NCBI GenBank assembly: GCA_963693365.1
Contig: CAVNZM010000009.1
Coordinates: 9,800,243-9,864,242 of the forward strand
From: Amoebidium appalachense
Lineage: Eukaryota > Protista > Ichthyosporea
Reading direction: 5' to 3'
DNA length: 64,000 bases
Part shown: piece by piece, positions 22,158 through 31,227 of the stretch
Layout of the letters: the number at the start of each line of letters is the position of its first letter
Numbering within the stretch: the first letter of the stretch is position 1
Notes under the pieces: model-generated
What the model was told of the DNA's origin: nothing
What the model saw: the letters and a program-made list of their open reading frames with translations, nothing else
Databases searched by the model: none
Translations under genes and position numbers: made by a program

Positions 22158-22347
22158 CTAGTAGTGAAAATTTTTATAAGTATTCTGACTATGTCGGGGA
22201 AGCAGAGACACAGTGGTGCAGTGTAAAAACACCACAGACACACAAACACACAGACGGAACCGATCGGAGAAGTGTACAGAACAGACATCAATGTTTAGAC
22301 ACAACTGAACTGAATTTATTTTGAGATGTGCTTATCCCCAATGTAAT

Positions 22348-22435
22348 TTGATTCACATTCAATGTGAATCAATCTTGTATCCCGGGAATTTTTGAAAATC
22401 GGTCAATTAGGGTGATTCACATTAAATGTGAATCA
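22348..22435. repeat. Two palindromic subterminal motifs at the left end of the piggyBac-like element
   Basis: ttgattcacatt-c-aatgtgaatcaa (22348-22372) and tgattcacatt-a-aatgtgaatca (22413-22435). Confidence 0.9.
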
Positions 22436-23002
22436 AAACCCCCTCTTCAAAAAACAGAGTTTTTTCCCGTATAAATGACCCGGTGGGGTCGAAACTTTGC
22501 AAGAGCGAAGTAAACATATATAGTTTTCAAAGCCCCGCGGCTGTGTATAGTTTGTATATGGGCTTTGCGGCGCAGCGAGGGCGTGCTGGCACACAAAGTT
22601 GGATATCGACAACCCATAGAATGATCAATGCCTGCAATCGACTGATTGATGTAAGTGTGCTGCCTTTATGATATGTTACCTCATAATGAGCTTCTGAACA
22701 GCGTTTCATCTATTGAGTAAAGATGAAGGTCGACCAGTTTCAATGCTTTACACCCCTCGAAGACTGAAAACCATTGGTTGTTACACAAAGGAAAACCATA
22801 TATGGTGTTTAGACGTAGCCTTTTTTGGCTCTTGTAAACAAAGCAACGGCACCGTGGCCCCTTGAAAGAGCTGCACGTAGATCATCTTCCCATACCCGTG
22901 ATTGAATTGCACCGTTATATTGTCACTTCTCCTTGATATATACCAGTAGTTGGTGTCTCTTACAATGCACACAAAGAATGGACGGGGGCATGGAACTTGG
23001 TG

Positions 23003-28327: not shown

Positions 28328-29975
28328 ACACGGTGGTCGCAGTGTGAAATGATTGGTTAAGTTAGAGTCACGTCACTTGCAGGCTTTGCTGTTGCCAAAA
28401 AGTTCTTCTTGTGTTTTTTCCTTTCCCCTCCCCCCCCCCCCCCCCCCCCCCCCCTTTTTTTTTTTTGGCTGTGTGTGTGTGTGTGTGTGTGTGTGTGTGT
28501 GTGTGTGTGTGCGTGTGCGTGTGTGGTGGTGGTGTATGATGGTGGTGGTGGTGGGGGGGGGGGGGGGGGGGGGGGGAGGGGAGGGCTCGGGAGGGGGGGG
28601 GGGGGGGGGATTGCCTATGATACCCAAGTTAACCGTTAGAGGGACTGTTGTAATTTCAAGTGTAAGACACTTAATAGTTCAGATTTCGTGGTCTTCTACT
28701 ACTGTATATATATTCTTGTGTTGCTAAGATCAGAGTGTACCAGTATCACAGTTATTTTTCGGAACATTATGTAAAAATTTGTTTAGACATTTAGAAGGAG
28801 CTTCAAGCTGAGTTACTGTATCATTGAATAAAAAATTCGTTTGAACGTGAAATTCCAAGTGTACGCAAACCTGCATGTCCGACCAATTATTATGGCAATC
28901 TACAAATTTGGACACTTGTTCACTATAAAATACATGGGAAAGAACCAGCAAAACATGCAGCTCGCCTGGCTGAGTATGTGCATACGTTTGCCCCCCCCCC
29001 CCCCCCCCCCCCCCCTCCCCTCTCCTCCTCCTCCCTCCCTCTCTCTAATAACAACAACAACATCCGCCTGACCACACACACACGCACACGCGCTACTGCC
29101 ATCACCCAACCGTGATAGTAACCACCGAACACACACACACACACAACACACTGTTACACACACACACATGTACACACACACACTGTTACACACACACACA
29201 CACACACACACACACACACACACACACACACACACACACACACACACACACACACACACACACACAAACACACACACACAGGCACACACACACATACATG
29301 TACACACACACACACACCCGGCCGTGCACACACACATACACACACACGCACACACACACACACACACACACACACACACACACACTATACACACACCATT
29401 GCACACACACACACACACACACACACACACACACACACACACACACACACACACACACACACACACACACACACACACACACACACACACACACACACAC
29501 ACACACACACACACACACTGACACACACCATTGCACACACACACACACACGCACATGTACACACACACACACACACACACACACCGTGACACACACACAC
29601 ACACACGCACACACGCGCACACACACACACACACACACACACACACACACACACACACACACACACACACACGCACACCGTACACACATGTGCACACCGC
29701 CACACACACACACACACACACACGCACACACATACACCCACCCACCCGGCACCCACCCACCCACCCACCCACCCACCCACCCACTCACACACATGCGCGC
29801 ACACACACCTACAGACGCACGCTATTCATTTGGCAGGCACTATGACATGCCGGCATTAAAAGCCCTCGCACGCTGCACGTGTCACTTAGTCACTAATTAG
29901 TATGATATGTCGGATCACGTGGCCCCCCCGCTGGCGCGGCCGCGATCATGTGAGTCGCGACTCGAAGTCGCCAAG

Positions 29976-30200
29976 TTGATTCACATTGTTTTCAGATTGA
30001 TTCACATTGTTTGGAGCTCGCACCACCTCTCGAACGTCTCTAAGTAACATGAAAAATATAGACATAAACACCCAAAAAAAATTATATGGGCGTTTTTTTG
30101 ACTACCAGAACTAAGTTTTTGCTTAAGTAACATGTATTTTTTGACCAAAGGGTAAAAATTGAGAAGCGCCACAAAATTGATTCACATTGAATGTGAATCA
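29976..30200. repeat. Right-end subterminal motifs of the piggyBac-like element
   Basis: Half-sites ttgattcacattgtt at 29976 and 29997; full palindrome at 30177-30200. Confidence 0.9.
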
Positions 30201-31227
30201 TCCGGACTACAGGGGGGTTATATAACTGCAATCACTAAGTCAAACCTATGTGTGATTTCCGACCAGTCGGAAATCAGAATAGATATCGGATAGACCAATC
30301 ATAATGGACTGATCACTACAGCAATAATCCAACACTCGCAATAGATCACGGCAAGGCATATTAAGAACACAGTCACGAAGAAACTGTAAACCTTGACACT
30401 AATTTCTAACCTATTATTGAGGTTAACGGCAGGGACACGTTATGACTAGTCTAGTGATTGGTTAGACCGCGGCAATTCGCAAAACAAACATAGTTGAATA
30501 AACTATTGACACATAAAATAGTACATGGTGTAGCCTATGTGTTTTTCTTCCAATCAAAACACAACTACTTCACACGAATTGACTCAACGTATATTAGTGA
30601 GAAAGAACAGTGATCACACACATGAACACCAGGGAAAAGGAGGAAAGAAAAGAGAAGAAGAGAAAGAGAGAAAAAGAGAGGAACACAGAACAACAAACAT
30701 GAACACGATAGCACAGTTACAACATAAGATATTCATGTACACACAAACATGTGCACGAGCACTCCTACTGAGTGGATTCGTGCAGGCACATATCTATATG
30801 CTAATCTTTAGATCAACACACGATTAGAGCCAATATGACACGATTACAGACACGAAAACATGTTTGAGATCGATTAACAATTTTACGAACAAGGAGGGTG
30901 ACTTTTACATTAATGCTATGAACTGAATCATAAACACAAACTGAAAGATCTTACACATGTACAAACTACGTACTTCAACATCCCCACTTAAGACTTGAAG
31001 TTTGTGTTCTCACATATATCCCCACTGTATCTCTAAAAACTCCCCACTTGAGAACGGAAACGGAAAGTGAAAAAAAAAAAAAAAAAAAAAGAAATAAAAA
31101 TTAAAGGATGGGGCCCGGGGGGGGGGGGGGGGGGGGGGGGGGGGGGGGGGGGGGGGGGGGGGGGGCAACAACAGCAAAGGAAGGAAAACAACCAAGGAAG
31201 AAAATAAAATATGCAGGTTAAGGTATA

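Follow-up and report, generated by a model that had tools for sequence, protein, structure and literature searches.

How would a transposase of the piggyBac type, the textbook case of footprint-free excision that proceeds without DNA synthesis and is tied to TTAA targets, employ an exonuclease lodged within its own catalytic domain? This question is raised by a 7882-bp element on the forward strand (positions 22336-30217) of a 64,000-nucleotide stretch of the Amoebidium appalachense genome (contig CAVNZM010000009.1 of assembly GCA_963693365.1, positions 9,800,243 to 9,864,242), referred to below as the window. The initial annotation had proposed that a lambda-exonuclease (YqaJ) domain, itself interrupted, is inserted between the second and third catalytic Asp of a piggyBac-like transposase. 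The feature is real: the element is a variant within the piggyBac superfamily, and the mechanism that we infer for it, namely that the nested lambda-type exonuclease resects the 5' strands of the donor ends and that homologous repair then copies the element back, has about an even chance of being correct.

The element and its predicted transposase

The protein is carried by two open reading frames (ORFs). The upstream one (22937-24355) contains the EDDD and VDRGY motifs, and the downstream one (25730-28327, 865 codons) contains, in this order, Q.S..W...R...ITST, SAP, a Pro/Gln linker, M..G..NE, GL...GASVDG, LEIK, Y..Q, WN..KGAVD, and the Cys tail; the YqaJ motif series is therefore present in the order in which it had been described ahead of the third Asp. 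The further claim that the insert lies in one continuous frame with the third Asp and the Cys tail holds, all three sharing the downstream ORF. VDRGY lies in the separate upstream ORF and is linked to the insert only through two predicted introns and across an extra base at position 25919.

A stop-free model of three exons, encoding 1274 amino acids, was obtained for the predicted transposase by scoring the 180 open GT-AG splice combinations that retain a middle exon with the family profile. Predicted exon 1 (23003-24122; Pfam DDE_Tnp_1_7, E 4.9e-5) would encode an acidic N-terminus, dimerisation and DNA-binding helices, D229 (codon at 23687), D310 (23930, within VDRGY), and the start of the insertion domain. 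It is followed by predicted intron 1 (24123-24991, GT..AG, with CA microsatellites), for which the best-scoring of these combinations was taken, and by predicted exon 2 (24992-25124), which is collinear with the nine relatives displayed and would supply the beta-strands closing the canonical insertion domain. Predicted intron 2 (25125-25754) has a weakly resolved choice of donor and acceptor, the top scores lying within 1-4 bits of each other, and predicted exon 3 (25755-28327), supported by its ORF, motifs, and alignment, runs from a linker through the exonuclease, SAP, third Asp, and Cys-rich tail to the stop. The top model scored 783.7 bits against 742.8 for the best exon-skipping form, so that skipping exon 2 costs about 41 bits. 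The start of exon 3 and its remainder differ in frame by one base, and removing the base at 25919, which lies in a C-rich run, restores the frame. Short-read contigs of the sequencing runs X1 and X3, either of which could be the source sample, lack this base; it is therefore likely an assembly error and not the mark of an independent allele, and a real frameshift was rejected. Since the insert and the third Asp share one exon, it is very unlikely that the insert is spliced out of the transcript, a possibility that the initial annotation had named as fatal to its proposal.

On the transposase side, D229, D310, and D1014 align with the Asp motifs of piggyBat and piggyBac through the family profile (E 1.1e-16 and 8.3e-9, respectively). 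The return to the transposase core, W1006-N1007..K-G..D1014 (27518-27544), has the spacing of Y439-N440..D447 in piggyBac, and a Cys-rich C-terminal domain of the piggyBac type (28076-28273) is indicated by a zf-Tnp_2 match below the Pfam cut-off (E 8.4e-4), by conserved Cys and His residues, and by a profile match to the piggyBat tail. The spacing of the second and third Asp departs from the canonical one of about 100 residues with a short insertion domain: it is 704 residues here versus 101 in piggyBac (D346-D447, PMC7351741).

Within the intervening sequence lies the N-terminal exonuclease part (25988-26038; Q496, W501, R505, T510), in which the Trp and Arg are spaced like Trp24 and Arg28 of the 5'-phosphate pocket of lambda exonuclease (PMC7496540). 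The domain is then split, as had been noticed from the start, by a SAP motif (26198-26302; Pfam PF02037, E 1.5e-11) and a Pro/Gln-rich linker (26321-26760), the interval containing the linker being 276 residues long here and 50-426 in relatives. The exonuclease core (26800 to approximately 27440; E786, S826, D828, E847, K849, Y889, Q892) is delimited by conservation and by the fold of a relative. Together, E786, D828, E847, and K849 make up the PD-(D/E)xK residues and W501 and R505 the phosphate pocket; by motif spacing and fold, rather than by residue-level superposition, W501/R505 and E786/D828/K849 would correspond to Trp24/Arg28 and Glu85/Asp119/Lys131 of lambda exonuclease (PMC7496540). 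The Pfam YqaJ model (PF09588) gives the window protein, with its split domain, 19 bits (E 0.0018) against a curated threshold of 22, and among 30 relatives it finds three weak matches, none above the cut-off; the assignment as an exonuclease is drawn from motif conservation and the relative's modelled fold. A single-sequence search of the PDB with the window protein returned SAP proteins and low-complexity noise only.

The ends of the element are those of the piggyBac superfamily, with CC..GG termini and a 4-bp target duplication. The left terminus (22336-22347, CCCC...) pairs at 9 of 12 bases with the inverted right terminus, which ends in GGGGGG at 30217, and copies of TTAT directly flank both (22332-22335 and 30218-30221); the coordinates first given for the element thus proved to be its exact ends. 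A subterminal inverted repeat of 30 bp is 96.7% alike between the two sides. Furthermore, a 21-bp palindrome occurs at 22350-22370, 22414-22434, and, at the right end, 30179-30199, with two half-sites at 29978-30008 on the forward strand. Its 10-mer is found eight times in the window, always close to the two ends of the element, against an expectation of 0.18, and none of 100 shuffles reached eight. By analogy with piggyBac (PMC7351741), the palindrome is likely a binding site of the Cys-rich domain. Relatives have each their own palindrome in the same layout, 13-65 bases inside each end.

Relatives and predicted fold

Relatives were gathered by an exhaustive protein-cluster search with exon 3 as query, which matched 734 clusters at E≤0.001, of which 278 reached 1e-10 and 22 reached 1e-30; the best 150 of the 734 were examined, and word-indexed protein searches yielded no match for exon 3, none for exon 1, and five for the family profile. 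Exon 1 was also matched by 38 of these 150 clusters, many of the others being short, and among the 43 clusters of at least 900 residues, 32 matched it, collinearly with exon 3. Both the D-D-D and the D-E-K sets are retained in 39 of the 41 rows that span all six catalytic sites. In counts that are biased high, for reasons given below, the transposase Asp residues are conserved in 40/42 (D229), 51/51 (D310), and 130/136 (D1014) rows; the exonuclease pocket in 67/68 (Q496), 68/69 (W501), and 68/69 (R505); and the exonuclease core in 107/109 (E786), 124/125 (S826), 122/124 (D828), 128/129 (E847), 127/129 (K849), and 142/143 (Q892). W1006 is kept in 132/143 and N1007 in 137/142 rows, and the Cys and His residues of the C-terminal domain in 92-97 of 93-99. 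In 42 relatives the second and third Asp are separated by 467-834 residues (median 562), and in every one of the 42 spanning rows the exonuclease sits where the insertion domain ends. The SAP motif is optional or divergent, being recognised by Pfam in 11 of 30 relatives and by a profile built from 12 rows in 18 of 42.

The fused architecture was borne out by intron-less relatives (loci L002 and L005) that carry it whole in a single ORF of 1315 and 1348 codons, respectively, inside terminal repeats, with both catalytic sets conserved in the family. A tree comparison of 42 rows without an outgroup found 10 of 12 strong transposase splits in the exonuclease tree and 12 of 16 conversely, and the two sets of columns are correlated (Mantel correlation 0.37, p 0.001); such congruence is compatible with one old fusion. 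An organism was named for four of the 30 clusters looked up, one being Plasmodiophora brassicae and three Chromosphaera perkinsii, and an Atlas cluster of 56 members is entirely eukaryotic, with Oomycota as its commonest phylum, although a phylum is on record for only two members. Narrow pattern searches confirmed no relative in viral contigs or in prokaryote genomes, nor was any confirmed in phage records. Some relatives have additional domains (a weak C1-like finger in P0073, a B-box finger in P0079, and a weak match to an OGG-like glycosylase at the N-terminus of P0120), and P0121, in which several catalytic residues of both domains are lost, appears to be a decayed or domesticated copy.

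The fold was taken from an intron-less relative, P0002, which shares 27% identity with both large exons of the window protein (over 365 columns for exon 1) and was modelled by AlphaFold with 40 sequences (pLDDT 84.7, pTM 0.78). The top Foldseek matches to this model were piggyBac, Tn5, piggyBat, and lambda exonuclease. Its match to piggyBac (6x67; Z 25.2, rmsd 3.4, 373 residues) spans model residues 62-881, so that in the model the core closes around the insert, which the initial annotation had proposed to test for the RNase H fold. Residues 420-762 match lambda exonuclease (3sm4; Z 15.6, rmsd 3.3, 204 of 228 residues), and LHK-Exo (3syy) and mimivirus R354 (5yeu) follow with Z 14.3 and 12.8, respectively. 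In sequence-profile comparison, piggyBat (E 1.1e-16) aligns to either side of an approximately 425-position gap, within which R354 aligns. According to the model, the insert lies between the ordinary insertion domain and the helix that in piggyBac bears Y439, N440, and D447.

Target junctions and copies in the host

The element in the window departs from the TTAA rule of canonical piggyBac by its TTAT duplication, and relatives with readable ends were obtained from metagenomes, where a first scan confirmed none of 96 candidates and a second confirmed five loci among 49 candidates. L002, L003, and L004 represent one 4570-bp element with a single ORF of 1315 codons, and L005 is a 4505-bp element (1348 codons). 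Nine junction readings from three element families, a small sample, gave TTAT twice, GTAG three times, and GTAT, CTAT, GTAA, and ATAG once each, so that all nine are NTAN and none is TTAA; should L002 and L003 share a single site at their right ends, the number of readings falls to eight. The 4570-bp element alone displays three different 4-mers, and the window copy has an exact duplication. For comparison, 88% of Pokey insertions are at TTAA (PMC3849761), and TTAT and ATAG have been recorded as rare sites in the piggyBac superfamily (PMC5381638).

The left and right 4-mers are unequal in L002-L005. L002 and L003 have a common left flank and different right flanks, and L004 has a broken pyrophosphatase ORF on the left and a mitochondrial-carrier gene on the right. 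These contigs are likely collapsed assemblies of several copies, which makes the unequal 4-mers uninformative on duplication, and we rejected the reading that they are true ends without a duplication. An attempt to reconstruct an empty site by matching left with right flanks in L002-L005 produced no convincing continuation. At the left end of L004 (151-665), the proton-pyrophosphatase frame is open for 171 codons up to the element, whose insertion seems to have broken a coding gene. No element end was located in L001, and L006 was dismissed as a chance palindrome with no protein match.

Contigs of the host sequencing runs X1, X3, X9, and X13 join position 23215 to 28226 over a shared 4-nt CAGG (23212-23215 on the left, 28222-28225 on the right, both on the forward strand and visible as loose contig ends). 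In X1, contig depth, which is not copy number, reaches 478-577 and more over the retained ends versus 34-41 over the interior. These data suggest that a non-autonomous derivative is present in multiple copies, with a length of about 2.9 kb provided that the rest is retained. Its junction is in frame and would encode a short N-terminus joined to the tail peptide; variants in X9 and X13 have a 2-base insertion at 23201, and the derivative is also present in a run that we guessed to be RNA. In the two guessed-RNA runs the interior was uncovered; X13 contained only the ends shared with the derivative and the flank repeat, X14 was compared with exon 3 alone, and transcription is thereby neither supported nor contradicted. 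The runs further contain a diverged sister family, about 85-87% identical (23617-24125 and 25962-26364), which differs at 66 of 509 bases in X3 and at 24 of 164 over the exonuclease's N-terminal part in X1. Among the differences listed, those in exon 1 leave 12 codons silent and four changed, being mostly in third position, and those in the exonuclease part leave seven silent and eight changed, none at Q496, W501, R505, or T510.

The window DNA is eukaryotic in character, its non-coding parts being rich in microsatellites. The 3' region of the element (28330-29830) and both predicted introns are full of CA/GT and poly-C/G microsatellites that resemble host non-coding DNA, and they account for a length of 7.9 kb as opposed to 4.5 kb in the intron-less relatives. 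A short repeat (22165-22324) stops a few bases left of the element and reaches a summed contig depth of 160,000-270,000, and is found in the runs next to many different flanks. Further upstream lie two broken pieces of copia-type retrotransposons in opposite orientation, one on the reverse strand (19083-20652) with gag, zinc knuckle, and protease-side domain, and one on the forward strand (21228-22103) with a reverse transcriptase containing an in-frame stop.

Possible roles of the exonuclease and known systems

If the exonuclease resects donor ends, the transposase core would still cut by the hairpin chemistry of piggyBac, since the pair with which piggyBac holds the hairpin and the target T-A (Y439/N440) is retained as W/N. 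Such cutting would leave 5'-phosphorylated 4-nt overhangs on the donor flanks, the type of end that the W501/R505 pocket would bind; the 5' phosphate on piggyBac overhangs follows from the chemistry. In piggyBac itself, the hairpin, with its T and A, is gripped by Y439 and N440, and 4-nt 5' overhangs arise on donor flanks and on transposon ends alike (PMC7351741), either of which could be the substrate here. The insertion domain lines the channel for flanking DNA in piggyBac. Joined to the end of this domain, and assisted in some members by SAP, the exonuclease would strip the overhangs needed for seamless rejoining. Repair from a sister chromatid or homologue would then restore the element, and interrupted repair would give rise to internal deletions. 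Microhomology junctions are typical of interrupted gap repair.

We rank this proposal first, with the functional part inferred, because (i) its selfish gain would be large enough to keep about 400 residues across distant lineages, (ii) lambda-type nucleases recur in transposon groups with other target rules, their presence in ISL2EU and KolobokE suggesting a benefit independent of the piggyBac flap, and (iii) the deleted derivative is compatible with interrupted gap repair and lends it weak support. Several points weigh against it. The fold is that modelled for a relative with 27% identity, exon 3 of the window protein folded from its single sequence being uninformative (pLDDT 36). The conservation counts are biased high, as the query held the exonuclease and the profile was made from 40 of its matches, and they are uninformative on insert-free relatives. 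A single 4-nt microhomology is weak evidence, depth does not equal copy number, and Pokey, a canonical piggyBac relative, also yields deletion derivatives (PMC3849761). Moreover, lambda exonuclease is processive as a trimeric ring (PMC7496540), an arrangement that is hard to reconcile with a transposase acting as a dimer; long resection is therefore doubtful for the exonuclease domain alone. Finally, the NTAN junctions fit at least as well with a different task, which is considered next.

In this alternative, the exonuclease would act on the transposon ends after hairpin opening and trim off the 4-nt 5' flap of former target DNA that they carry, so that any NTAN could be used and host fill-in would create a clean duplication. 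The central TA of all nine junctions, with no TTAA in three families, speaks for it, as do the three 4-mers of one element, whose carried flaps would mismatch new targets, and the exact duplication of the window copy; a short flap would also need no trimer, and the lambda exonuclease structure 3SM4 holds a 2-nt 5' overhang (PMC3239189). Yet the sample comprises only three families, non-TTAA sites amount to about 2-12% in Pokey and piggyBac without an exonuclease (PMC3849761), lambda exonuclease strongly prefers double-stranded DNA (PMC7496540), and the unequal 4-mers of L002-L005 decide nothing, as L004 is likely a collapsed multi-copy contig. Flap trimming is additionally disfavored by the fact that host flap nucleases are able to perform it, and we regard it as possible but unlikely. 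It is, however, compatible with donor-end resection, and the two may act together. Rather less probable is an active exonuclease that serves another step, by destroying excised or surplus ends, limiting the activity of the element, or replacing part of the hairpin pathway. Catalytic conservation indeed shows selection for activity and not for a substrate, and for the accessory ORF of ISL2EU the literature gives the roles as unknown (PMC4122938, PMC4482050); the fixed position of the domain at the end of the insertion domain nevertheless points to DNA ends held in the complex, and the hairpin-gripping W/N pair is retained.

That the fusion is unreal, whether because a separate exonuclease gene is nested there, because the gene model arose by chance, or because the assembly is at fault, would be most surprising. 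The window protein does require two predicted introns and the removal of one base, its interior has no RNA contig cover, and Pfam YqaJ scores below its cut-off, but single intron-less ORFs exist inside terminal repeats, dozens of proteins are collinear, the trees are largely congruent, and the extra base is missing from short-read contigs. The nested insertion of a separate gene was rejected as largely refuted by the single-ORF relatives, the collinearity, and the tree congruence. Returning to donor-end resection, its most far-reaching form would be an ancient and undescribed clade of the piggyBac superfamily in distant protist lineages, whose built-in 5'-to-3' exonuclease defeats seamless excision and makes each jump a copy-back gain, flap stripping at the same time opening every NTAN site. 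We put this forward tentatively, as it is more probably wrong than right in its full breadth. A large clade with a piggyBac active site, a conserved end-processing nuclease, and NTAN targets nonetheless implies a different finish of the reaction. In the compact, intron-less, and apparently intact members of about 4.5 kb (L002 and L005), a single polypeptide comprises both nuclease and transposase, so that the role of the exonuclease is open to test by one point mutant, and tool builders may take an interest in an enzyme of the piggyBac type that combines a wider target with built-in resection.

The exonuclease-bearing family is probably undescribed in the open literature, where our searches for a lambda exonuclease in piggyBac, whose coverage did not extend to Repbase/Dfam and one key review, found no description; in the main text of PMC5381638, the word exonuclease occurs zero times. 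A RepeatMasker class label, DNA/PiggyBac-X, has been used for repeats of Plasmodiophora brassicae (10.1101/2025.07.30.667784). This organism carries the family described here, and identity with PiggyBac-X, which is known by label only, is possible. The class presumably corresponds to the Repbase name piggyBacX.

Compared with known systems, the family shares with Trichoplusia ni piggyBac and with piggyBat (6x67, 9c0f; DDE_Tnp_1_7) the D-D-D core, the WN/YN..KG.VD helix, the beta insertion domain, the Cys-rich tail, CCC..GGG ends, the 4-bp duplication, and subterminal palindromes, whereas the long distance between the second and third Asp, the nested exonuclease with SAP, the NTAN junctions, and the predicted introns set it apart. 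Pokey/mPok of Daphnia belongs to the same superfamily and has occasional TTAT, ATAA, and CTAA sites as well as deletion derivatives, but it keeps mostly to TTAA, and the excerpt drawn upon mentions no exonuclease, none having been searched for there (PMC3849761). With the lambda exonuclease/YqaJ family (3sm4, 3syy, 5yeu), the domain has in common the fold, the catalytic Glu/Asp/Glu/Lys, and the W/R phosphate pocket, and it differs in being embedded in a transposase and split by SAP and linker. At least three groups of transposons are accompanied by lambda-type nucleases, among them KolobokE and ISL2EU; the initial annotation had likewise stated that such genes occur in some other DNA transposon groups. 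Membership in KolobokE or ISL2EU was rejected, since both represent other superfamilies: KolobokE has RR..YY termini, a C/DxxH signature, and its nuclease lying downstream of its transposase domain, not inside the catalytic triad, versus CC..GG and a nuclease before the third Asp here, and in ISL2EU YqaJ is encoded by an ORF of its own, whose role is unknown (PMC4122938, PMC4482050), the termini are GG, and the duplication is 2 bp, versus a single fused ORF (L002, L005), CC termini, and a 4-bp duplication. A precedent for the design comes from some Dada elements, those of Laccaria and Ectocarpus, in which a DEDDy 3'-5' exonuclease with its catalytic residues kept is nested after the second catalytic Asp (PMC3706591), although that exonuclease is of an unrelated fold and Dada is another superfamily, which targets small-RNA genes.

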